A stretch of DNA of 64,000 nucleotides, taken from contig CAVXAT010000002.1 of NCBI GenBank assembly GCA_963759805.1, positions 1-64,000 of the forward strand. The letters are read 5' to 3'. Positions 26,307 to 58,512 of the stretch are shown piece after piece. Numbering within the stretch: the first letter of the stretch is position 1; each line of letters begins with the position of its first letter. The notes under the pieces were generated by a model that was not told the DNA's origin, did no database searches, and was given only the letters and a program-made list of their open reading frames with translations. The position numbers were made by a program, and so were the translations under genes. The DNA is from an uncultured bacterium. Its GTDB lineage: Bacteria; Babelota; Babeliae; Babelales; RVW-14.

Positions 26307-26355
26307 CACTTATGAGCTAAAGGTAACATGACATGTTACCTTTAGCTCATAAGTG
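26307..26355. repeat. Perfect 49-bp palindrome (24-bp arms, 1-nt spacer)
   Basis: CACTTATGAGCTAAAGGTAACATG-A-CATGTTACCTTTAGCTCATAAGTG. Confidence 0.95.
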
Positions 26356-30150: not shown

Positions 30151-30207
30151 TCATCCTGAATTTACCTGCCTCGCCGTAGCCACAGCATGGCGTAGGCGGG
30201 TTTCAGG
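30151..30207. repeat. REP-like hairpin (TCATCCTGAA..TTCAGG) carrying a 36-bp second hairpin in its loop (30165-30200)
   Basis: Comparison with the empty copies at 30246 and 54546. Confidence 0.8.
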
Positions 30208-30496: not shown

Positions 30497-31645
30497 TGTT
30501 CTAGTCCAGATACATATGAGACTAAAAAGTTGAATTTTTGAATTTGCTTGAAATATAATAAAGACCTCCAGAAAACATAACAAACTTTTTAGGAGGCCTT
30601 TATTATGCAGACAAAACGTCTACACAAGAAATACTATTATATTTCTAAAATAGATGAAAGAGATTATTCAAAAATAGTTTGGGAGCGCAAGCAAAAGCTC
30701 GAGCTATTCGATACATTAATGTGTGATGGATGCTCGGAAGAAGTTGCCATCCAAGCAATTGGAATGTCTCGATCAAAATACTATCGATTAAAAGCTCGTT
30801 ATCAAAGAGATGGCCTTGCAGGCCTTGAGAATCAAAGTAGAAAACCACATCGCTTAAGACAACCTCAATGGCCCCCTGAAATTGAGGAAAAGGTATGTGG
30901 GATTCGAAATAAATTCCGTGTTTGGGGCAAGGATAAAATTGCTGTTATTCTTAAACGGGAATTCAATCTTAAGGTATCGATTAGCACGGTTGGACGCATA
31001 TTATCAAAGCTTATAAAAAATGGAAAATGTAAAACTGTTTCGTTTTATACTGGAAAATACTCACCAAAGCCAAGAATATTTAATGATCATGCTCAGCGGT
31101 TACCAACTGGAGCCAAGAGCAAAAGACCTGGAGAACTCGTACAAATTGACCATATGACGGTTAAACTTGATTCAGGAAAAGAAGTTAAACACTTTGATGC
31201 AATGTGTCCAACGACGCACGTTGCCGTGGGTAAAGCATATCGCCAAGCAACGAGTTTAATCGCAACAGATTTTCTTGATTTTATGGTTCAGCAGCTGCCT
31301 TTCCCGCTTTTATCAGTTCAGGTCGATGGGGGCAGTGAGTTCAAAGGTGAATTCGAACAAGCCTGTAAAAGTCGCAATATTCCCCTTTTTGTTACCCCTC
31401 CGAGATCGCCTCAAATTAACGGTGCTGTTGAACGGGGAAATGGAACCGTTAAGTATGAATTTTACAGCCTGTACGACAAAGGCGACAACCTTCAATTCAT
31501 TAATGACTCACTGCAACAATTTATGAATATATATAACAATTATCGACCCCATCGCAGTTTACAAGGACTTACGCCTATGGAATACTGTATAAAGATGGAG
31601 GTCTTTCAATCGAATTCTCAGTCTCATATGTATTGAACGCAGTCA
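30497..31645 (+). mobile_element. IS481 family insertion sequence
   Basis: TG...CA termini; IR core ATACATATGAGACT / AGTCTCATATGTAT; 5-bp TSD CCCAT (30492-30496, 31646-31650). Confidence 0.88.
30605..31636 (+). CDS. IS481-type rve/DDE transposase
   Basis: HTH region, LVQIDH, VQVDGGSEF, NGAVER, YNNYRPH..L..LTP. Confidence 0.92.
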   Translation: MQTKRLHKKYYYISKIDERDYSKIVWERKQKLELFDTLMCDGCSEEVAIQAIGMSRSKYYRLKARYQRDGLAGLENQSRKPHRLRQPQWPPEIEEKVCGIRNKFRVWGKDKIAVILKREFNLKVSISTVGRILSKLIKNGKCKTVSFYTGKYSPKPRIFNDHAQRLPTGAKSKRPGELVQIDHMTVKLDSGKEVKHFDAMCPTTHVAVGKAYRQATSLIATDFLDFMVQQLPFPLLSVQVDGGSEFKGEFEQACKSRNIPLFVTPPRSPQINGAVERGNGTVKYEFYSLYDKGDNLQFINDSLQQFMNIYNNYRPHRSLQGLTPMEYCIKMEVFQSNSQSHMY

Positions 31646-33909: not shown

Positions 33910-34164
33910 ATGAATAAAAAACAAAGCGAAACATTGCAGGCGATTTTTAAAGAGCCAACAAAATCAAATGTAAAATGGACAGACATTGAGTCGCTATTTA
34001 AGCATCTTGGGGCTGAAGTAAGTCAAGGCAACGGATCTCGTATAAGAGTTGCACTTAATGGGGTAAGAGCGGTTTTTCATAGGCCACATCCAAGAAAAGA
34101 GACCGACAAGGGTGCTTTGGTTTCGGTACGTAGATTTTTAGAAAATGCAGGGATAAAGCAATGA
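33910..34164 (+). CDS. hicA: HicA family toxin
   Basis: GNGSRIRV, FHRPHP motifs. Confidence 0.92.
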   Translation: MNKKQSETLQAIFKEPTKSNVKWTDIESLFKHLGAEVSQGNGSRIRVALNGVRAVFHRPHPRKETDKGALVSVRRFLENAGIKQ

Positions 34165-34481
34165 TGAAATATAAAGGCTATTTGGGCGAAGTTTCTTATG
34201 ATGCAAATGCAAAAATCTTTCATGGAGAAGTTCTAGGGCTAAAAGATGTTATTACGTTTCAAGGAACAACGGTCGTTGAACTTGAAAAGGCATTTAGAGA
34301 TTCAGTTGATGATTATGTAGCTTGGTGTAAAGAGCGTGGCGAAGAGCCTGAGAAAGCATTCTCTGGAAACATTCATATAAGAATCTCGCCTAACCTTCAT
34401 GCAAAACTTGCACAAACCGCTATAGTGCAAGGCGTAAGTTTAAATTCTTTGATTATTGATAAATTACAAAAAAATAAATAG
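34161..34481 (+). CDS. hicB: HicB family antitoxin
   Basis: YKGY, ITFQG, SVDDY, C-terminal RHH (RISPNLH...SLN); overlaps the hicA stop. Confidence 0.92.
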   Translation: MMKYKGYLGEVSYDANAKIFHGEVLGLKDVITFQGTTVVELEKAFRDSVDDYVAWCKERGEEPEKAFSGNIHIRISPNLHAKLAQTAIVQGVSLNSLIIDKLQKNK

Positions 34482-35824: not shown

Positions 35825-35864
35825 CTCTTCTCCCGTTTCGACTAATATCTTCTGAAACTCGCAT

Positions 35865-36019
35865 CCTTCGACAGGCTCCCAGACTTCGCCCTTCCCACTC
35901 CGCTCAGGTAGCTCCGAGGGACAGGTCGTGGCTACGCCGGGCACGGCAGGACGAGCGCCATGAAGTAGGCGCGCTCGTGGTGAGCTCGTCGAACCATCAC
36001 CCTGTGACGCGCCGGGCCT
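35865..36019. repeat. Inverted REP doublet; the left REP carries a 69-bp nested insert (35879-35947)
   Basis: CCTTCGACAGGCTC|insert|AGGACGAGCG paired with CGCTCGTGGTGAGCTCGTCGAACC (35972-35995). Confidence 0.85.
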
Positions 36020-38413
36020 CTACTGCTCCCTGCGCATTATAGGCTGACGTCTAAATTTTTTAGCAAATGTACCTAGCGAATCTAACTTTAAAGCAAAAAC
36101 AAATGTATGCTCTGTCGTATTATTACCATACTCACGATATTTTTTAACCTCAATTCCAAAATATAAACCCCAACAGTGTCCGTTTATTTCCATTCTTACT
36201 CTATGAATCAAAGGGTTTAAGCCTTGTAAATCTGCAAAATGGCAACCCTTTTCATCATAAAACTGGCCATCATAACAAAGTACTACCTCTTTGCTAATTG
36301 GAATTGCAATATTCACAAAAATAAAATGCGGAACATTTGATAAAAGCTCACGGATCCGTTGTAATAATGGGTACTGATAAAAATAACCGGCGGAGATGTT
36401 TAGCTTATCTTTAAAAATACCTAACCCTATCTGAGACTGAAGTAAACGAGCCCGACCAAACTCAACTTCTTGAGCTAAAGAAAGTTTTAAAATACTGTAT
36501 CCAATACTAAAATCATAACTAAGCGGTAAAAGATGCCGTTGTCCTACTCCGCGACGCAGGTAAAAAATATCGGATTGACTATAAAAATCATACCCCTGCT
36601 CAATATTCAGATCGATATTCCAGTTTTTCCAATTCAAATTATTGGAAATATTTCCGGACAGTTCGTTTATTGGATATGCTCGATCCCACAAATCCATGTA
36701 ATACCAATTTTTTTGATAAAATTTAGGCAAGAATGTCCACTTAATTGTCGGCTGCATAAAATTAGAGCAACTAAAATCATCACTATAACTGGTGACCTCA
36801 GGCAGAGCCCATTCAGCACCATATTTTGAGTAAATTCTATAAGCTCCATTCCCCAACAGATGATCCTCGATAACATTTTTTTTATGAATATCTTTTGAGA
36901 AAGTGTTACTTCTAAACTGAACTTGCGGTTCAGCAAAAAGCCTAATGTTGCTATTTTTTAAATTAATGCGCGAATGAAGATTCCCCTTATATCCAGCCCT
37001 GAATACATCATGCTTTTTAGGAGGAATCAACAACGATTCATTAATCATTCTTGAATTTACAAAGATACGCCCTATCTTAATTTGGCTACAAGAGATCTCA
37101 TCAAAAAACAGGTCATGCCGATAAAATAATGTATTATATAGGCTCCAGTTGGAAGCATTCCACTCAAAATGAGGTAGCTTTACCGTGTTAAACCTATCTT
37201 CAATCTCTTTTTTTGTAACAAAATCATCATTAAACTCAATAACTTTTTCTTTATGATCATTAGCGAATTTTTTAGCAAAAACAATCTCCTCCCGAGTAAG
37301 ATTTAAAAATTGCTTACGACTTGTACGCTCTTGATCCCATTTTAATTCAACCAAATGCTTACTGGATAACCCCCTAAAAATAACCGAATTAAAGAATGTG
37401 TCATCAACCTCTTCAATGTTATTATAAAAGTAGTATCCAATCTGTTTATCCGTACCAAAATCTGCACGGATAAGACTTCTAAAATCAAAATTTCCAAGAT
37501 GCGTCAGATATGTAAAATCCTTACCCTGAATCCAATACCTATGCTCTGTTTTTGGAACAATATTGTCATTTTCTAAGGCATACGAATCGTTGACTACGGC
37601 GTACTGCCCATAGGCAGTTGTAAATGAATCGGGAGACCGCGCCCATCTAAATTCATCTGAAAATACACAGCCTCTTCGCGTTTTAAAATCTAAGCCAAAC
37701 GTAGTATCACAATGTCGATTGATATATTTGTAATACTCTACTTTCACGCCAAAACCAAGACTATAATCAAATGAAAATTTTGGAATTAAAAAACCTGACT
37801 TTGAACGGCCCTGAATTGGCAAAGCCATCCTTGGCACATAAAAAACCGGAATTCCACCTGTTTTGAAAAGAATATTCGACGCATCTATGAAATAACTTCC
37901 GTGTATAACAGCCTTTGTCGCACTAAAATACCAGTGTAAATCCTCTTGATCACAAGCCGAAAACAGAATATCTTCCATTCGCCAGTTAAAATCATTAAGT
38001 TTTTGTGCCCTCTTCGCAGAAATATACCCTTCATCCATATGAATTTTTATATTCTCGGCATAACCTGTTTTATTTTCAAGATTCAAAAGAATATAATCAG
38101 TTAAAATTACAAAATCATTATTTTCAATTTTTACCGGACCACATTCAGACATCTTTGCAATCAGTGTCTGCTCCTTACGATCTATCTCTACCCTGTCAGC
38201 AGACAAACGAAATTTTTGATCTATGATCGCATCGACGGCGCCTTCAAAAATGATTCTGTTCTCATCAATAACCGTCTGTTTTAAACTGTTTACGCGCAAA
38301 AATTTACCGGACGTTGAGGATTTTATAGCGGCATTTAAATTAAAAGAAAAAAATGTAAGAATAAGCAGCAAACCCGCTTGTCGCAAATAACTTTTAAGCA
38401 TATTCAAAATCAA
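36020..38413 (-). CDS. lptD: LptD-like outer-membrane assembly protein
   Basis: Signal peptide, jellyroll-like N-terminus (ADRVEID, FSAC..WYFSA), RSKSGFLIP, C-terminal HCW, aromatic-rich beta pattern. Confidence 0.75.
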   Translation of the reverse strand: MILNMLKSYLRQAGLLLILTFFSFNLNAAIKSSTSGKFLRVNSLKQTVIDENRIIFEGAVDAIIDQKFRLSADRVEIDRKEQTLIAKMSECGPVKIENNDFVILTDYILLNLENKTGYAENIKIHMDEGYISAKRAQKLNDFNWRMEDILFSACDQEDLHWYFSATKAVIHGSYFIDASNILFKTGGIPVFYVPRMALPIQGRSKSGFLIPKFSFDYSLGFGVKVEYYKYINRHCDTTFGLDFKTRRGCVFSDEFRWARSPDSFTTAYGQYAVVNDSYALENDNIVPKTEHRYWIQGKDFTYLTHLGNFDFRSLIRADFGTDKQIGYYFYNNIEEVDDTFFNSVIFRGLSSKHLVELKWDQERTSRKQFLNLTREEIVFAKKFANDHKEKVIEFNDDFVTKKEIEDRFNTVKLPHFEWNASNWSLYNTLFYRHDLFFDEISCSQIKIGRIFVNSRMINESLLIPPKKHDVFRAGYKGNLHSRINLKNSNIRLFAEPQVQFRSNTFSKDIHKKNVIEDHLLGNGAYRIYSKYGAEWALPEVTSYSDDFSCSNFMQPTIKWTFLPKFYQKNWYYMDLWDRAYPINELSGNISNNLNWKNWNIDLNIEQGYDFYSQSDIFYLRRGVGQRHLLPLSYDFSIGYSILKLSLAQEVEFGRARLLQSQIGLGIFKDKLNISAGYFYQYPLLQRIRELLSNVPHFIFVNIAIPISKEVVLCYDGQFYDEKGCHFADLQGLNPLIHRVRMEINGHCWGLYFGIEVKKYREYGNNTTEHTFVFALKLDSLGTFAKKFRRQPIMRREQ

Positions 38414-40956: not shown

Positions 40957-41808
40957 TCAAACCAACCCACCCAATCCCCGAACAATAGCCTCCAAAACGA
41001 CGTGCCAGTCATCATCCTGGTTAACTCCAACCTCAATCAAAAGGGCTGGGGCAACAATTCCACACAACGGTTTGAGCGGAATGCCGTAAAAACCCCCAAA
41101 ATCAAATATTTTCTGGTTGTCTGCCCCTGAAAGTGCATTTGACAACTGTTGACCAATATTTTTTGTTCTGAAAATACTAACTTGATGCGCCTGCAAAACC
41201 GATATCATTTTAAGAGATGGGAATGTCCTGTCAACAAAATCGCCAACAGGGTCTGCCACATGCTGGTAAACATAGACCTTTGGCCTAACTGACTCTAATT
41301 TAAAAAGATGGACACTTATGAATAGATCTACGTTTAAACGGTTGGCAAACGAGGCATTCTGAAAATCGACTATCTTTTCCCCGGGTACACGGGTCAAAAC
41401 AACCCTGAAATCATACGCTCGTTCAAAAGCACTTTGAAGCTCTTGGGCAAACCTAAACGTCGCGGCACGCTCAAAACCACTCAAGCTACGCCCCGGATCC
41501 CCCGCATGTCCGGCGGGATTGATCATAATGACCTTCTTTGCACCCTTGAGAGAAGGATCAAGAAAGGGGGCATTAGCGTAAGCCATAAAATTAGTTGCGA
41601 AAGTAGACAACCCCGCCATCAAAGTTAATGTGATTAAAAATAGTCTTCTTGCACAACTTGGAATTTTAAAAAGGCGCGCTCGTGGTGAGCTTGTCGAACC
41701 ATCGCCCGGCTTGTCCGTCGTAGCTCGAAGAGCGAAGTCGGAAGGGCGACGGGCCTGGTCATGCAAGAGATCTATTAGTCTGATTAAAGCTGATTTAAAT
41801 ATCTTCAT
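40957..41808 (-). CDS. N-acetylmuramoyl-L-alanine amidase (Amidase_3-like)
   Basis: INPAGH, ER, VVLTR, ANRLNVDLFISVH, PALLIEVG. The start is uncertain and the N-terminus overlaps a REP. Confidence 0.8.
   Translation of the reverse strand: MKIFKSALIRLIDLLHDQARRPSDFALRATTDKPGDGSTSSPRARLFKIPSCARRLFLITLTLMAGLSTFATNFMAYANAPFLDPSLKGAKKVIMINPAGHAGDPGRSLSGFERAATFRFAQELQSAFERAYDFRVVLTRVPGEKIVDFQNASFANRLNVDLFISVHLFKLESVRPKVYVYQHVADPVGDFVDRTFPSLKMISVLQAHQVSIFRTKNIGQQLSNALSGADNQKIFDFGGFYGIPLKPLCGIVAPALLIEVGVNQDDDWHVVLEAIVRGLGGLV
41672..41756. repeat. REP composite with a 33-bp hairpin insert (41710-41742)
   Basis: Matches 53790-53837 except that the 3-nt loop is replaced by 36 nt. Confidence 0.88.
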
Positions 41809-46007: not shown

Positions 46008-46236
46008 GATAACCTCCATATTTAATAAAACTAAAAAAACCACCATCTTTTTAAACTAAAATTTATCACTTGTAATATTATACTAGCAGACAAAAATACT
46101 AAAATCAAAGGCCCCCACCCCATTGCAAACTTGAAAAACAAAAAATATACTCTATCATCACATAAGATTTTAAATAAATTATTAAATAAACTATCCAATT
46201 GTGTGTTAGGAATTAGATGTGTGTGTTAGGAATTAG

Positions 46237-48309
46237 ATGTCTGAATCATTGACAGAAAGTAGCTTGAAGTTTTGGGAAAAGCAGGCTCAAAAATTACCTT
46301 GGTTTAAAAAATGGAATCATGTTCTAGCATGGAATGAACCATTTGCACACTGGTTTGTTGGCGGTCAAATAAATGCCTCATACGCATGTCTAGATATTCA
46401 CATTAAAAACGGATTGCAGGACAAAACAGCAATCATCTGGGAAAGTGAGAATGGTAGCTCACAAACTCTCACATACGGCCAACTTTATGATCAAGTAAAT
46501 AAATTTGCCAGTTTTTTACAAACACAGGGTGTTAAAAAGGGCGACATCATCGTCATTTATCTTCCAATGATTCCTGAAGCAATTGTGGCCATGCTGGCAG
46601 TGGCACGGCTTGGGGCAACGCATTCAGTAGTGTTCTCAGGCTTTAATACAACGGCATTAAAAGATAGAATTGTCGACACTCAAGCCAAATTCGTAATTAC
46701 AACTGATGCGGCATTTTATAGAAACAAAAATATTGTCCCGAAATATGTTGTATCAGACGCAATCAGACAGATTAGCCAGACTGCGCATGACAATGCAGCG
46801 CAAGCAAATTTTGTTAAAAAAGTTATTGTAATTAAGCGAACAGAAAATTCAATAACTATAAATCCCGATCTTGATGTTATTTACGACCCAAACACCTCAA
46901 CGGGTCCGATGGAACCTAGCCATGCGGAATTTGTTCCCGCCGCCGTGCCCGGCGTAGCCACGACCTGTCCCTCGGAGCTACCTGAGCGGAGTGGGAAGGA
47001 CGAAGCCTGGATGCCTGTCGAATCCAATCACCCTCTTTTTATTTTATATACATCCGGAACTACAGGAAAACCCAAGGGCATCGTCCACTCAACCGGCGGA
47101 TATTTAACTTATGTTTATTCAACAATTAAATGGGCTTTTAATATCAGCAAAGATTCAATTTACTGGTGCACGGCAGACATTGGGTGGATTACGGGGCATT
47201 CGTACGTAGTCTACGGCCCCCTCATGCACGGGGCAACAATTTACATCCGCGAGGGCGCACCTGACTGGCCAACTCAGGATGTCTGGTGGAAGGCAATTGA
47301 AAAGCATAAAATTTCAATTTTTTACACATCCCCAACGGCATTACGTATGTTCATGAAAATGGGTAACGAGAATATTTTAAAACACGATTTATCCAGTTTA
47401 AAAACGCTTGGTTCGGTTGGCGAACCGATAAACCCTGAAGTCTGGCGATGGTTCAATGATGTTATCGGACAAAAAAGGTGTCCGATAATTGATACGTGGT
47501 GGCAGACGGAAACAGGTGGTTTTATGATCTCTCCAACCGCAGGACTTAATCCTACCACAGAGCTTAATCCAATTGCAGAAATAAAACTTAAACCCGGGTC
47601 CGCAACCTTTGCATTACCGGAAATTGATGCTGACATTGTTGATTCAGGCGGACAATCCGTACCACCCGAAACCAAAGGGTTTCTTGTAATCAAAAAGCCT
47701 TGGCCGGGAATGGCAATTGGAATTCATAACAATCCACAAGCATTTCGTGAGATTTATTGGTCAAAGTTCCCAAGCATGTATTATTCAGGCGATTATGCAA
47801 TAAAAGATTCCGAAGGGTATTTCTGGTTACTTGGCCGAGCAGATGAAGTATTAAAAATCTCCGGCCATAGAATTGGAACATCAGAAATTGAAAGCATAAC
47901 ACTTGAACATGAAGCAATTGCTGAAACTGCAGTTATCGGAATTCCTGATGAGATAAGAGGAGAAGCAATAATTATATTCTCGATTCTCAAAACAAGTTTC
48001 ACCGTGAGCATTAGCACTGAACACGAAGTATTAAAACACGACGTATTAAAACACGACGTGTTGGAACACGAAGTGTTCAAGCAAGAAATCTTGCAAAAAA
48101 TCAGAACTCAGATTGGTGCATTTGCAACTCCAAAAGAGATTCACTTTGTTGAAAGTTTACCAAAAACCCGTTCGGGGAAAATAATGCGTAGACTGCTTAA
48201 AGCAGTTGTGCAGGGTCAAGCAATCGGAGACCTGTCCACATTGGAAGATGGAACGTCGATTGAAGAAATTCAAGCAATTTATAATATGATTAAGAAACAG
48301 TTGGGATAA
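46237..48309 (+). CDS. acs: Acetyl-CoA synthetase
   Basis: LYTSGTTGKPKG, TADIGWITGHSY, DTWWQTETG, PKTRSGKIMRR. Confidence 0.96.
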   Translation: MSESLTESSLKFWEKQAQKLPWFKKWNHVLAWNEPFAHWFVGGQINASYACLDIHIKNGLQDKTAIIWESENGSSQTLTYGQLYDQVNKFASFLQTQGVKKGDIIVIYLPMIPEAIVAMLAVARLGATHSVVFSGFNTTALKDRIVDTQAKFVITTDAAFYRNKNIVPKYVVSDAIRQISQTAHDNAAQANFVKKVIVIKRTENSITINPDLDVIYDPNTSTGPMEPSHAEFVPAAVPGVATTCPSELPERSGKDEAWMPVESNHPLFILYTSGTTGKPKGIVHSTGGYLTYVYSTIKWAFNISKDSIYWCTADIGWITGHSYVVYGPLMHGATIYIREGAPDWPTQDVWWKAIEKHKISIFYTSPTALRMFMKMGNENILKHDLSSLKTLGSVGEPINPEVWRWFNDVIGQKRCPIIDTWWQTETGGFMISPTAGLNPTTELNPIAEIKLKPGSATFALPEIDADIVDSGGQSVPPETKGFLVIKKPWPGMAIGIHNNPQAFREIYWSKFPSMYYSGDYAIKDSEGYFWLLGRADEVLKISGHRIGTSEIESITLEHEAIAETAVIGIPDEIRGEAIIIFSILKTSFTVSISTEHEVLKHDVLKHDVLEHEVFKQEILQKIRTQIGAFATPKEIHFVESLPKTRSGKIMRRLLKAVVQGQAIGDLSTLEDGTSIEEIQAIYNMIKKQLG
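46942..47010 (+). repeat. 69-bp nested palindromic insert, in frame within acs
   Basis: 67/69 identical to the reverse complement of 35879-35947; encodes AVPGVATTCPSELPERSGKDEAW. Confidence 0.95.
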
Positions 48310-48333: not shown

Positions 48334-48918
48334 TTAAGAACGTGCAAATGTAACTAGTTTTGAATAATCTCCTTGATCTGCTAACTTCAATGCATCAATA
48401 TACTGTTTTCGAATTGGTGTAGCCTTATATAAATCCTGATTTATTCCCCAACTAAAACGGGGATGTCCCAATTGCATTATAAGCAAATCAGCCATCAAGC
48501 GCGCATGTCGCCCATTCCCGTTAGGAAAGGCATGAATCCACACTAAACGATGGTGTAATCTTACCGCAATTTCGTCATCAGAAAAAGATTTGTTCTCCAG
48601 TTGATAATTAACATCATCACAAAGTTTTTTCAACTCGACTGGAATAATAGGCCAGTCAACACCTATATTTTTCCCATAATGACGAAAGATCCCTGCCCAC
48701 TTCCATGTTTCATTAAACATCTGTTTATGTAGCTGCTGAATAAAATGAACCGAAATAATATCCTTTTTTTCACGCCCCCATTTTTCGGCAGCAATAATAT
48801 TTTTTTGTTCCCAAGCATTCAGTTGTTCATGAGTGGTAATATGTGTTGGGATTAAATCGGCAATTTCCTCCGGCTCGATGGGCGTAGCGCCCTCCGGATA
48901 ATTAAATTTCATCATCAC
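48334..48918 (-). CDS. Mobile mystery protein B (Fic family)
   Basis: YPEGATP, WKWAG.FR, Fic motif HAFPNGNGRHAR. Confidence 0.9.
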   Translation of the reverse strand: MMMKFNYPEGATPIEPEEIADLIPTHITTHEQLNAWEQKNIIAAEKWGREKKDIISVHFIQQLHKQMFNETWKWAGIFRHYGKNIGVDWPIIPVELKKLCDDVNYQLENKSFSDDEIAVRLHHRLVWIHAFPNGNGRHARLMADLLIMQLGHPRFSWGINQDLYKATPIRKQYIDALKLADQGDYSKLVTFARS

Positions 48919-53789: not shown

Positions 53790-53837
53790 GCCCGCTCGTG
53801 GTGAGCTTGTCGAACCATCGCCCTATGGGCGACGGGC
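53790..53837. repeat. REP-like palindrome (empty form)
   Basis: GCCCGCTCGTGGTGAGCTTGTCGAACCATCGCCC-TAT-GGGCGACGGGC. Confidence 0.88.
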
Positions 53838-54921: not shown

Positions 54922-57900
54922 ATGAAAAAGATTTTTCATGTTTTTTCGATGTTACTGTTGTTAGGTTCGTTACAAGTTGATCTTTGCGCAATGCAGGAAC
55001 CAGATGATGCAACGACTCCCGTTGAAATACCAGTAGATCATCCAAATTCCGGCCTGATAAACGGCCAGAGCATCTGTTATCTAAACGCTGTAATTCAATG
55101 TCTTTCAAATCTTAAAACTTTCAGAGAAAAATTGTTAGCCCACGAAGACACTTATCAGAACAATCCTCTTGTTTTAAATTTAATCAGATTATTCAAAGAC
55201 TTAAGAACAACCACAGAACCTGCAATACAAAATGACACCTTGATTGGCCATGTAAAAACGTTAATCACAAATCAATCAGGAAATGCACGAGAACACTTTC
55301 AAGATGCGGATGAAATTCTAACTCTGTTGTTAGGACAAATTAACAAACCAAACAAAATTTCTTTAGAGTTACAACTTGATCAGAAAGTTAAATGCCTTGG
55401 AGCTCATGGTGCAGCCGGTTGTCAGCACGAATCCCCAAAACATGAGACGCATGAAACAATTGCATTACCACTTGATGAAATTGCCACTCAAAATACACTT
55501 CAAGCATTGCTTGAAAGCTTTTTTACATCATCATTCGCACATGATTATGTTTGTGATGGTTGTGGTAAAAAAAATACATCTTTTAAAACTTCTAGAATTT
55601 CAAAAAACCAAGATGAATTAATTATCACGTTAAAAAGATTCAATTCAGATGGGACCAAGATAGATACATCTATTTCATTTCCAATGGAACTCGATTTAAA
55701 GCCTTATTCAACAGATGGGCTAAAACAACAAGCCGGCGTAGATCTTTCATATGAATTAGTTGGTTTTGTTTGTCATGGCGGTAACCATTATATTTCATTT
55801 GTAAGAGATTTTGGAAATGGGGAATGGTACATGTATAACGATTCGGCAGTCAGCGATGAAATAAATTTGCAACTTATACAAGGGATTACCACGACAGGTA
55901 GTTTTTCACTAAATTCTCAAATTTTCACACCATACATTTTGTTTTATCAAAAAAATGGAATCGGGGGGCAAACGCTTGCTCATCCAACAGCACAACAATC
56001 TGTAGATCAAGATGAAGGCGAAGATTGGGATTCATCAGATGGCGAGGATGAACTTCAGCCGCCAACAACTAAAGGCTTTTTTAGCTGGTTTCTTGGATGG
56101 GCTACCGGTAACAACCAAAGAGAAGACGAGCGAAGAAAACAAGAAGAGGTTAAATTGCAAGAAGAGGCGATAAAGAAACGTCAAGAGGAGAAACTAAGGA
56201 TGCGAAGGGAAACTAGACTACAAGAAGAAGTGATAGAAAAACGCCAAAACCTAGGACTCATGAAAGTCGAAGCACTCCCATATTTAAATTCAGTCGTACA
56301 GTGTCTTTCGAATCTTAAAAAATTTAAGACTAAACTATTTGCAAGTGAAAATGATTATAAAGATGATTTTTTAATTCTTAGCCTTATTAATCTTATCAAA
56401 AGACTGAAGAATTCTAGCGAATCATTAGGAAATCAAGATTTTGTAGAGCAAGCAAAGATTTTGGTGCAACAAAGTAAAAATAATGAAGTTGCACTTCAGG
56501 TGGCAGATGAATTTTTAAATTTGTTATTTGATCGTCTGCATACCCAAGACATGGAACCTCTTAATCTCCTAATTAATATAATTACCCAGTGCATAAAAAA
56601 CAAAGATATATCAGGTTGCGAATATTCTTTAGATGAAGATGGAGTTGTGCAACCCAAGACAAGCCTATGTTTTAAAGAATTAAAAAGTGTCCAAGAAATT
56701 TTGGCAAAGCAATTTTCACCTTCTTTTGATAAAGGGTACACCTGCAAATGTTGTCATAAAGCTGGAACTTCTGTTATTACACAGAAATTTTTACGCTGCC
56801 CTTCCGAATTAATAATTTCTTTACAACGATTTGATTCATCTGGAAATAAAGATTTATCGCCAGTTATTTTACCATTGATACTTGATTTGACCCCTTATCT
56901 TAGCCATGAATTACTACAACAAATCGATCAGGCTCCGTATGAATTAGTGGGCATTGTTTGTTGCAATCGAAACTCTCAATATTATTCTTACATGAAAAAT
57001 ATTGCATCAGATAAATGGTTCCGGTACAACGATGAGTCCGTTGTAGAGGTCAGCAATCAAGAAATTAAAACGCTGGCAGATTCCGGAATAGATTCGCAAA
57101 ATTTTGTGCCATACATTTTATTTTATGAATTAAAGGAGTCCGAATGCCATACAAGTGCATCTCAAGCGCAACAAAGTTCAACTGCAACGAAAGATCAAAG
57201 ATCAAACGCTAAAAACACACAAGAAATAATGGCTCAAATGACGAAACTTTGGAATATAAAGAAGCAACAAGAACGGGACCTTAAACGTGCTCAGGGCGTT
57301 GCAAAATCGGCTGATAAAAATCTAGTTAATGCGCAGTTGGATGGAGCCGATTTAACCGATTTGGATTTGAATGGGGCAGATTTAACGGGTGCGTCTTTAA
57401 TCGGTGCAACATTGGTTAGAACAAAATTGAATGGCACAATTTTGGCCAATGCAAAGTTAAATAATGCAATTATTTCGGATGTTCAATTATGCAATGCGAC
57501 ACTAAAAAACACAGATTTGAATAATTCAACAATAACGAATATAACCGCTCATAACATAACTATCTCAGATGGTACAAAATTTGAGAATGCAACAATAAGC
57601 TCGCTAAATCTAAAAAATATCAAACTACAAAATGTGTCTTTTGCAAATGCAACATTAAAAAATATCACATTTTCAACCTCATTAATTGATCATGTAAATA
57701 TGGCACACATACAAGCTGAGGAGTTATATTTAAATGAATCTTCGCTGACAAACATAGATTTCAGCAGGGCTTGCATTGTAGGTCTTGATATAAGCAATGC
57801 AAACATCATAGGAGATTGGTTAAATTTCAGATATGCAACGATAAAAACGGGGTGCATTAGGGGAACAACCACATCTAGAAGACCTAGCCCTGGCGAACGC

Positions 57901-58512
57901 TCAGATGGCATCACAGAAAAAGAAAATACAGGACTAATAATGGATACAGTAGGCGTTTCAACACTTGTGACATCTACAGCTTTTGGTACTGTTACTATTC
58001 CTATTCCGATTGTTGGATCTGCCGCTGGATTTTTCTATGGATTGTTTTTGGTTGGAGTTGAGCTTATCATTCACGATGAATACCTCGACTCAAAAAAAGA
58101 TTTTGGCGCTTCAAATATTAACAGCATTTTGCTCAATTCCGATTTTTATGGAGCATCATTACAAGACGTGATTGTGCAACATGTAAAGCTTGGTAATTGT
58201 ATGAATATTGGAAGAATTAGAAAAGCAGTTGGAACCAATTTTGATAACATTGTAAGTAGCAATCCAAAGGATTTGGACGATTTAAGACACAAGGGCGCTT
58301 GTGTAAATGAAATTCCATCAGACGAATTTAAAGTACTATGGCCTACAAAAGGAAACGATCAGAAAGTTTTTTGGGTCAAGCTACTTGCTGGTGCTGCGCA
58401 TGGAACCCTCTCAGGCACCATATCAAAAGTTGAGACAAATTTACGGGACAAACAACAAGAGGCAAAGTATAAGTCTTTTATATCTGAAGAAATACAAAAA
58501 ACAAGAAAATAA
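54922..58512 (+). CDS. Secreted protein: USP/C19 deubiquitinase domain, degenerate second USP domain, pentapeptide repeats
   Basis: Cys box GLINGQSICYLNAVIQCL, QDADE, LKRF, His box HGGNHYISF..W..YND; a second copy has substitutions at the catalytic positions; A(D/N)Lxx repeats follow. Confidence 0.88.
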   Translation: MKKIFHVFSMLLLLGSLQVDLCAMQEPDDATTPVEIPVDHPNSGLINGQSICYLNAVIQCLSNLKTFREKLLAHEDTYQNNPLVLNLIRLFKDLRTTTEPAIQNDTLIGHVKTLITNQSGNAREHFQDADEILTLLLGQINKPNKISLELQLDQKVKCLGAHGAAGCQHESPKHETHETIALPLDEIATQNTLQALLESFFTSSFAHDYVCDGCGKKNTSFKTSRISKNQDELIITLKRFNSDGTKIDTSISFPMELDLKPYSTDGLKQQAGVDLSYELVGFVCHGGNHYISFVRDFGNGEWYMYNDSAVSDEINLQLIQGITTTGSFSLNSQIFTPYILFYQKNGIGGQTLAHPTAQQSVDQDEGEDWDSSDGEDELQPPTTKGFFSWFLGWATGNNQREDERRKQEEVKLQEEAIKKRQEEKLRMRRETRLQEEVIEKRQNLGLMKVEALPYLNSVVQCLSNLKKFKTKLFASENDYKDDFLILSLINLIKRLKNSSESLGNQDFVEQAKILVQQSKNNEVALQVADEFLNLLFDRLHTQDMEPLNLLINIITQCIKNKDISGCEYSLDEDGVVQPKTSLCFKELKSVQEILAKQFSPSFDKGYTCKCCHKAGTSVITQKFLRCPSELIISLQRFDSSGNKDLSPVILPLILDLTPYLSHELLQQIDQAPYELVGIVCCNRNSQYYSYMKNIASDKWFRYNDESVVEVSNQEIKTLADSGIDSQNFVPYILFYELKESECHTSASQAQQSSTATKDQRSNAKNTQEIMAQMTKLWNIKKQQERDLKRAQGVAKSADKNLVNAQLDGADLTDLDLNGADLTGASLIGATLVRTKLNGTILANAKLNNAIISDVQLCNATLKNTDLNNSTITNITAHNITISDGTKFENATISSLNLKNIKLQNVSFANATLKNITFSTSLIDHVNMAHIQAEELYLNESSLTNIDFSRACIVGLDISNANIIGDWLNFRYATIKTGCIRGTTTSRRPSPGERSDGITEKENTGLIMDTVGVSTLVTSTAFGTVTIPIPIVGSAAGFFYGLFLVGVELIIHDEYLDSKKDFGASNINSILLNSDFYGASLQDVIVQHVKLGNCMNIGRIRKAVGTNFDNIVSSNPKDLDDLRHKGACVNEIPSDEFKVLWPTKGNDQKVFWVKLLAGAAHGTLSGTISKVETNLRDKQQEAKYKSFISEEIQKTRK

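Follow-up and report, generated by a model that had tools for sequence, protein, structure and literature searches.

How a small palindromic element came to lie in frame within a metabolic gene, directly before codons that resemble its target in repeats, is the question raised by one locus of the window, a 64,000-nt stretch of DNA from an uncultured bacterium. The assembly containing the window is a 1.5-Mb genome, 88.7% complete, with about 37% GC. The acetyl-CoA synthetase gene acs (AcsA, 690 aa; 46237..48309, + strand) is an open frame without interruption, and its product matched the profile TIGR02188 with 786.8 bits against a cut-off of 724.95. A sequence-only reading of this DNA had noticed a 69-nt repeat within the gene, and the insert proved to be real: positions 46942-47022 (+) match 35867-35947 (-) over 81 nt with 95% identity, and the 67/69 identity reported between the two copies holds in the register used there. 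All acs codons and the frame are kept.

When insert-free orthologs of Acs were sought, as had been suggested, the 23 residues were missing in 18 of 18 orthologous loci spanning the site (19 loci were looked at, and one that did not reach the insert site was left out). Based on this alignment, the 23 added residues, a predicted protein segment at approximately residues 236-258, are a lineage-specific in-frame insertion. We also mapped the insert on a structure model built from a 17-sequence alignment (mean pLDDT 73, pTM 0.79), a single-sequence model having been set aside (pLDDT 36). Residues 234-257 were modeled as coil with pLDDT below 50, flanked by folded parts, and the model, with the insert, agrees with solved Acs structures, so that the Acs fold is predicted to be otherwise intact. 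In one ortholog of the same genus, an insert of its own, 20 residues long, adjoins the same site, which indicates that the linker there accepts changes of length, and the insert peptide is likely neutral cargo. An in-frame insert is ordinary in this genome, since 35 of 148 repeat clusters fall within long ORFs, at least one of them being a tRNA false positive; six in-ORF repeat clusters were compared with orthologs. Short tandem duplications were also observed at the start of acs and inside it (window 46200-46240, 47545-47575 and 48020-48074), with 9 and about 20 residues extra relative to orthologs.

The insert had been described as lying exactly between codons, with M-P-V-E as the mimicking codons, and neither description was borne out. 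According to the ortholog and copy alignments, the boundary is likely one base off, and the nested hairpin insert of 69 nt occupies 46943..47011 (+) in the corrected register, splitting a Val codon. Taking out 46943-47011 leaves F-V-P-A-V-P-V-E-S. At the junction, the 18 orthologs have Val (10), Glu (5), Leu (2) or Thr (1) and in no case Met, and three same-genus relatives have Val at the position where this Acs has Met; the mimicking codons are thus likely V-P-V-E. Among the copies in intact repeats of other genomes, 6 of 87 end in A followed by the A of the repeat itself, so the last arm base is part of the element. Because this base belongs to the element, the cut was likely G^T inside a GTG Val codon, and Met would have arisen when the junction G subsequently changed to A. 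The native acs bases TGCCTGTCGAA (47012..47022, +), which resemble the repeat loop GAGCCTGTCGAA but lack its stem, would together with the G at 46942 have encoded Val-Pro-Val-Glu. The corrected empty site, A-V-P-V-E, agrees with the repeat target loop GAGCCTGTCGAA at 11 of 12 bases; an ancestral Glu codon at the junction would give a perfect loop match, yet would require two changes. The acs relatives are distant (4-fold identity 0.47-0.54) and do not fix the ancestral synonymous bases, and it is by parsimony that the whole mimic was probably present in acs before the insertion. A closer relative with an empty acs allele was not found in metagenome contigs, and the genus was represented by only three genomes; the sole member of the Acs protein cluster was unrelated (29 aa), and the 21-nt left end of the insert had no exact match in a genome contig collection from which its own genome was possibly excluded.

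The 69 nt consist of two nested copies of one hairpin family, a 36-nt outer and a 33-nt inner element. The 5' part of the outer element (46943..46963, +) comprises the leader CCGTG, the arm CCCGG, the core CGTAGC and the first half of the loop; the inner element of the same family (46964..46996, +) sits in this loop, and the 3' part (46997..47011, +) shows two G>A changes that are private to this copy, the first within the core and the second at the terminal base. The outer element is also present un-nested elsewhere in the genome, and the inner 33-mer has six copies in the genome, inside different outer elements. It had been proposed that the insertion is recent and that the nested composite moves as one unit. 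The first proposal holds in relative terms, the copy being young with two private changes from the family consensus. The second is at best likely, considering that the inner 33-mer occupies different outer elements; stepwise insertion of 36 and then 33 nt would also preserve the frame each time.

Members of the family follow a common grammar: a short leader, a 5-nt arm, C-GNA-GC, a loop of 3-11 nt, GC-GNA-G and an arm of 5-6 nt, in a unit of 27-37 nt. The grammar was fitted by 104 elements in the genome, compared with 1 in a reversed and 1 in a complemented control genome, and the family is therefore not a product of chance. Without the stem filter, the arms were paired in 85 of 98 cores, and 37 of 50 distinct arm pairs could pair (shuffled mean 18, maximum 28). 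Within the internal loop, covariation from G.A to A.C is seen at the outer position, and these pairs may be read as sheared. The hairpins were not unusually stable in terms of folding energy (z from -0.9 to +0.6); folding programs give tandem G-A pairs poor scores. A search of Rfam gave 0 matches. Copies are located in REP-A (our label for a host palindromic repeat described below), in CGTC-type repeats, in one another, beside tRNA genes and in unique DNA. Some hairpins of the family directly adjoin the 3' end of a tRNA, and their right arm then overlaps the encoded CCA (L018-L029 region, e.g. L029:1330-1380). Elsewhere, a tandem array (L199:1450-2120; G000:C19:8457-9111) consists of units of 69 and 102 nt; every unit contains a family hairpin, the nested 33-mer is present in two, and an open frame of 261 codons spans the array.

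The second nested 69-mer copy (35878..35946, -), placed by copy alignment and by the pepP start, is intergenic, because pepP orthologs begin with M-F-Y/F. This copy opens REP-A (35858..35957, -) at TG^AGCCTGTCGAA, and both filled and empty forms of REP-A occur in the genome. A larger composite repeat, located upstream of pepP, includes the REP-A around the second copy. Within the window, a 33-nt family member adjoins a further REP-A copy (41710..41742, +), a 36-nt member lies in the loop of a CGTC-type repeat (30165..30200, +), and an empty REP-A copy was found at 53791..53823 (+). Larger composite repeats (window 35840-36020; L194 and L195) end in inverted termini CTCTTCTGAAA..TTTCAGAAGAG; these outer ends may resemble those of RPE-1, for which the profile matches listed gave no support.

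The 10 nt that directly follow the insert in acs agree with the most frequent repeat target to a degree well beyond chance. The sequence-only reading had asked how often inserts lie 5' of this motif in the genome, and a count gave 73 sites of GCYTGTCGAA, 67 in repeats and 6 outside as classified by eye. The element fills 21 of the 67 repeat sites at the same base and one of the six unique sites, that of acs. Among hand-curated junctions to unique DNA in this genome, 2 of 18 mimic the REP-A loop with at least 8/9 matches, namely acs (9/9) and tkt (8/9), which corresponds to a binomial p of ~1e-5 at a background of 1.25e-4 per position. The 18 junctions were picked by hand because the automatic classification used the motif itself and placed acs and tkt among repeats. 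The remaining 16 bear no likeness to the REP loop. In 43 other genomes, GCCTGTCGAA follows 11 of 114 same-arm-type copies (at least 8/9 match), all 11 in REP-A; these were distinct copies, unconditioned on the target motif, with three contig-end matches left out. The base after the element was A or T in 91 of the same 114. As such, the idea that insertion is sequence-directed stands in part: the likeness at acs and tkt is beyond chance, but GCCTGTCGAA is not the general target of the family. A universal GCCTGTCGAA rule is ruled out by the 11/114 count and by the many other targets in this genome, and GCCTGTCGAA is one hot spot for the hairpin family.

A motif search across collections, conditioned on the target motif, gave 111 distinct loci, 87 of which were true elements, 86 with A at +1. 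All four pairs of the stem around the target were formed in 74 of the 87 repeat targets, and the acs site forms 1/4. Since the acs site is without the stem, it was linear sequence that counted there. In tkt (composite repeat at L185:1590-1720; G000:C4 ~102035-102210), the hairpin end is followed by native codons for V-P-A-D, whose sequence mimics the REP-A loop, T is kept at +1, and about 25 linker codons have been lost. A Patescibacteria record (L057:400-445) provides a third candidate, a degenerate copy of 30 nt that lies in frame within a Thr/Ser-rich linker, where the codons T-G-S-T-S-S spell the REP-A loop on the other strand. A bare 99-nt triple-nested composite, in frame in a 207-aa ORF on the minus strand (L048:1478-1577), showed no mimicry. 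Searching 261 genomes for a non-A base before GCYTG yielded five matches and no new coding mimic: tkt, one REP-A variant, two in another repeat and one degenerate copy without a long ORF.

The two ends of the element behave differently. Its 3' end is constant at the hairpin foot, whereas the leader varies from 4 to 9 nt among copies at the same REP site (83 copies), and in proS there is no leader, the 27-nt insert abutting a native Lys codon. In proS, an esterase gene, rlmN, tkt and dprA, 1-3 nt at the junction are common to the element and the native codons. A fixed target-site duplication of the MITE kind was not found, as acs shares 1 nt and other sites 0-3 nt; it is ruled out by the varying junction overlaps and by the 114 copies in other genomes.

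Regarding the enzymes that might act on such hairpins, the genome holds five small GIY-YIG genes and one 606-aa protein with the domain. The assembly has two clade-3 copies, both short: one of 63 aa at the end of a contig and one of 69 aa. From 151 genomes of the phylum we took the best 29 loci for each of three GIY-YIG types and dropped loci with short flanks. This hairpin was present within about 200 nt of the clade-3 gene in 21 of 26 loci (from the best 29) and in 0 of 46 distal windows, counts that, like those for the other clades, include related genomes and are not independent. It lay mostly on the upstream side only, and on both sides in four cases; REP-A was near 1 and CGTC repeats near 3 of these 26 loci. 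The pairing was different for clade 1, with REP-A in 16 of 28 loci and this hairpin in 6, and for clade 2, with CGTC repeats in 15 of 27 loci and this hairpin in 5 (each from the best 29). Many clade-3 genes adjoin tRNAs. The link between clade 3 and the hairpin is one of genomic proximity, and, by analogy, the small clade-3 nuclease is likely the mover of the hairpins. At the loci L026, L027, L028, L029 and L030, three small GIY-YIG clades were seen, and across the phylum each is tied to a particular hairpin family, which for clades 1 and 3 is not of the CGTC type. For Y1 transposases, there were five matches in the genome (88.7% complete), four of them clear genes with their own ends. By eye, none of the five was bracketed by this hairpin; one Y1 gene has a copy about 150 nt upstream, adjoining a tRNA.

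We compared the family with known systems on the basis of text descriptions, and the figures of PMC3733652 and the supplements of PMC11893778 may list related repeats. Rickettsia palindromic elements (RPE) are described as in-frame palindromes in housekeeping genes of a small AT-rich genome, creating new peptide segments (PMC10969869, PMC3733652), and the element in acs is likewise a dispersed palindrome in frame that is missing from orthologs. While RPE-1 is about 150 bp, the present unit is 27-37 nt and nests in itself and in other repeats, and the RPE descriptions in the available parts of these two papers give no target-mimic rule or enzyme. No RPE profile was among the matches listed for nine proteins (NCBIfam, E at most 0.1, best 25 for Acs), in a library whose RPE models are unconfirmed. 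The GTAG- and CGTC-tagged intragenic REPs (Di Nocera 2013, PMC3733652) are also similar, as the accessible text presents them as clustered hairpins of 20-40 nt, some within other palindromes, many lying in ORFs and encoding 20-30 residues. Such inserts are known from RPE and REP and are common in this genome, and the 23 new residues of Acs are the ordinary part of the case. Unlike GTAG-tagged REPs, this hairpin has no unpaired terminal GTAG; the motif is internal when present and varies (GAAG, GGAG, ATAG), and no RAYT/Y1 gene was flanked by it among the five Y1 matches inspected by eye. In contrast with CGTC-tagged REP/NTS/SRM, it is without a terminal CGTC/TGTC tag and an 8-9-bp stem, and CGTC-type repeats exist separately in the genome, where they serve as its targets. 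A term search of the supplement on intragenic REPs of PMC3733652, as far as available, did not find the family peptides. According to the same text, site choice and spread of CGTC repeats without a known transposase is an open question.

A parallel for an enzyme is SsnA, reported as a small GIY-YIG protein flanked by CGTC-type hairpins that cuts ssDNA a few nt upstream of the hairpin (Chenal 2025, PMC11893778). As with Ssn and NTS/SRM, a small single-domain GIY-YIG gene lies beside its own strand-specific hairpin structure here, with the cognate hairpin flanking it in 21 of 26 loci (from the best 29), and cleavage of the Ssn type, some nucleotides before the hairpin, would agree with the short leader of the element. 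In the portions of that paper available, cutting and a restriction-like role are shown, and a part in spread or mobility is only hypothesised; moreover, SRM is of the CGTC type, which matches the separate clade-2/REP-B pair here and not this hairpin. REP/REPIN with TnpA-REP (RAYT) provides another likeness, being non-autonomous ssDNA hairpins with a required bulge and an adjoining enzyme gene (PMC8266576). The accessible description there is of an HUH tyrosine transposase with a GTAG guide and C^T cleavage, whereas here the neighbour is GIY-YIG and the junctions are mostly G^A or G^T. No literature on this hairpin family or on target mimicry was found within a search scope that left most subscription papers outside.

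What is observed is the insert with its two canonical ends, the match of the flank, and the association in the genome of the hairpin family with the GIY-YIG clade. To account for these observations, we favor nuclease-assisted copying into acs, primed by the likeness of acs to the 3' flank of the donor and with a GIY-YIG nuclease as the likely enzyme, to which we assign a probability of about one half. The donor would be a sister copy in a REP-like repeat, whose 3' flank the Val-Pro-Val-Glu codons of acs match; since the nested form lies in REP-A twice (C2, C5), the donor likely had a REP-A flank. A nick or break in acs would release a 3' end that anneals to the donor flank at the foot of the hairpin, and a polymerase would copy the hairpin and stop a few bases beyond it. 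An Ssn-like nuclease would cut the donor strand there, producing the short and variable leader, and the end would be rejoined with 0-3 nt of overlap. Of the resulting insertions, only those would survive that preserve the reading frame and fall in a tolerant loop. Target-primed copying fits the fixed 3' end, the varying leader and the 1-3-nt shared junctions. Against priming by the flank, most insertions in unique DNA are unlike the REP loop (16 of 18, and none of the non-REP contexts among the 114 copies). The distance of the acs relatives, the nuclease link by proximity, with many clade-3 genes also close to tRNAs, the shortness of both clade-3 copies in this assembly and the unremarkable folding energies count against this explanation as well.

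The left junction bears on a second explanation. A stretch of 8 nt is common to the empty acs site and the left end of the donor, and use of this overlap would give 66 nt, not the observed 69. Because the 8-nt overlap was unused, precise enzymatic ends are favored, which keeps alive the possibility of a dedicated enzyme that reads the target itself, by protein or by an in-element guide as in IS608/TnpA-REP. The REP-A loop would then be a preferred site independent of the donor flank, and acs an off-target. Both acs junctions lie on canonical ends, the exact TG^AG site is common to many element and REP variants (87 of 111 loci, 86 with A at +1), and occupancy is of like order in repeat (21/67) and unique (1/6) sites. 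In contrast, the targets are very diverse, leaders vary and may be absent, the four clear Y1 genes have their own ends and, by eye, no such hairpins as ends, and most junctions read G^A or G^T instead of C^T. We regard a dedicated enzyme as a tentative alternative.

Host break repair alone, by annealing on one side and illegitimate joining on the other from an abundant donor, would make the GIY-YIG genes mere neighbours or targets. The inserts in tkt and dprA replaced about 25 native codons, as expected of repair, several short tandem duplications lie within acs, and REP-A donors are abundant in this genome. However, repair alone leaves unexplained the regular ends at the hairpin foot, the conserved core with covarying arms (37/50 versus a shuffled mean of 18 and maximum of 28) and the clade-specific pairing of nuclease and repeat, and we consider it unlikely. 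Alternatively, the look-alike may have arrived with the donor, a conversion tract into the REP flank having overwritten acs codons that held no prior mimic. While the two nearest relatives have other synonymous codons at Val and Pro, this predicts A at +1, giving a Glu codon, where the base is T at position 2 of a Val codon, likewise in tkt, and it needs more later changes than a clean insertion, which makes it very improbable. An assembly chimera or chance landing, conceivable as this is a single metagenome-assembled genome, can practically be dismissed, given a repeat-flank overlap of no more than 10 nt, two changes private to this copy, an undisturbed frame with every acs codon in place, and a chance p of ~1e-5.

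With flank-primed copying as the preferred reading, acs contributes an off-target event, resolved to the base, at a coding look-alike that lacks the stem; tkt provides a second case. A stemless look-alike in exact register amounts to natural target mutagenesis, in which linear sequence 3' of the cut suffices. The two further GIY-YIG clades with their own hairpins are candidate site-specific ssDNA nucleases. A more general extension, which we hold to be possible but rather doubtful, is that widespread 30-nt micro-elements spread without a transposase, a non-Ssn GIY-YIG nuclease fixing one end and donor-flank pairing setting the register of landing. If so, each copy would bear its own address, hot spots would be self-reinforcing, and codons that spell the address, as in acs and tkt, would be hit.

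Several other features of the window were recorded. A perfect 24-bp inverted repeat with a 1-nt spacer is intergenic at 26307-26355. An IS481-like integrase is encoded at 30605-31636, a HicB-family gene lies at 34161-34481, and a Fic-domain protein is encoded at 48334-48918. The 1196-aa protein encoded at 54922-58512, which combines pentapeptide repeats and a ubiquitin C-terminal hydrolase domain, looks host-directed; next to it lie a pentapeptide protein and an unknown ORF of 1336 aa, with starts that are nearly identical.
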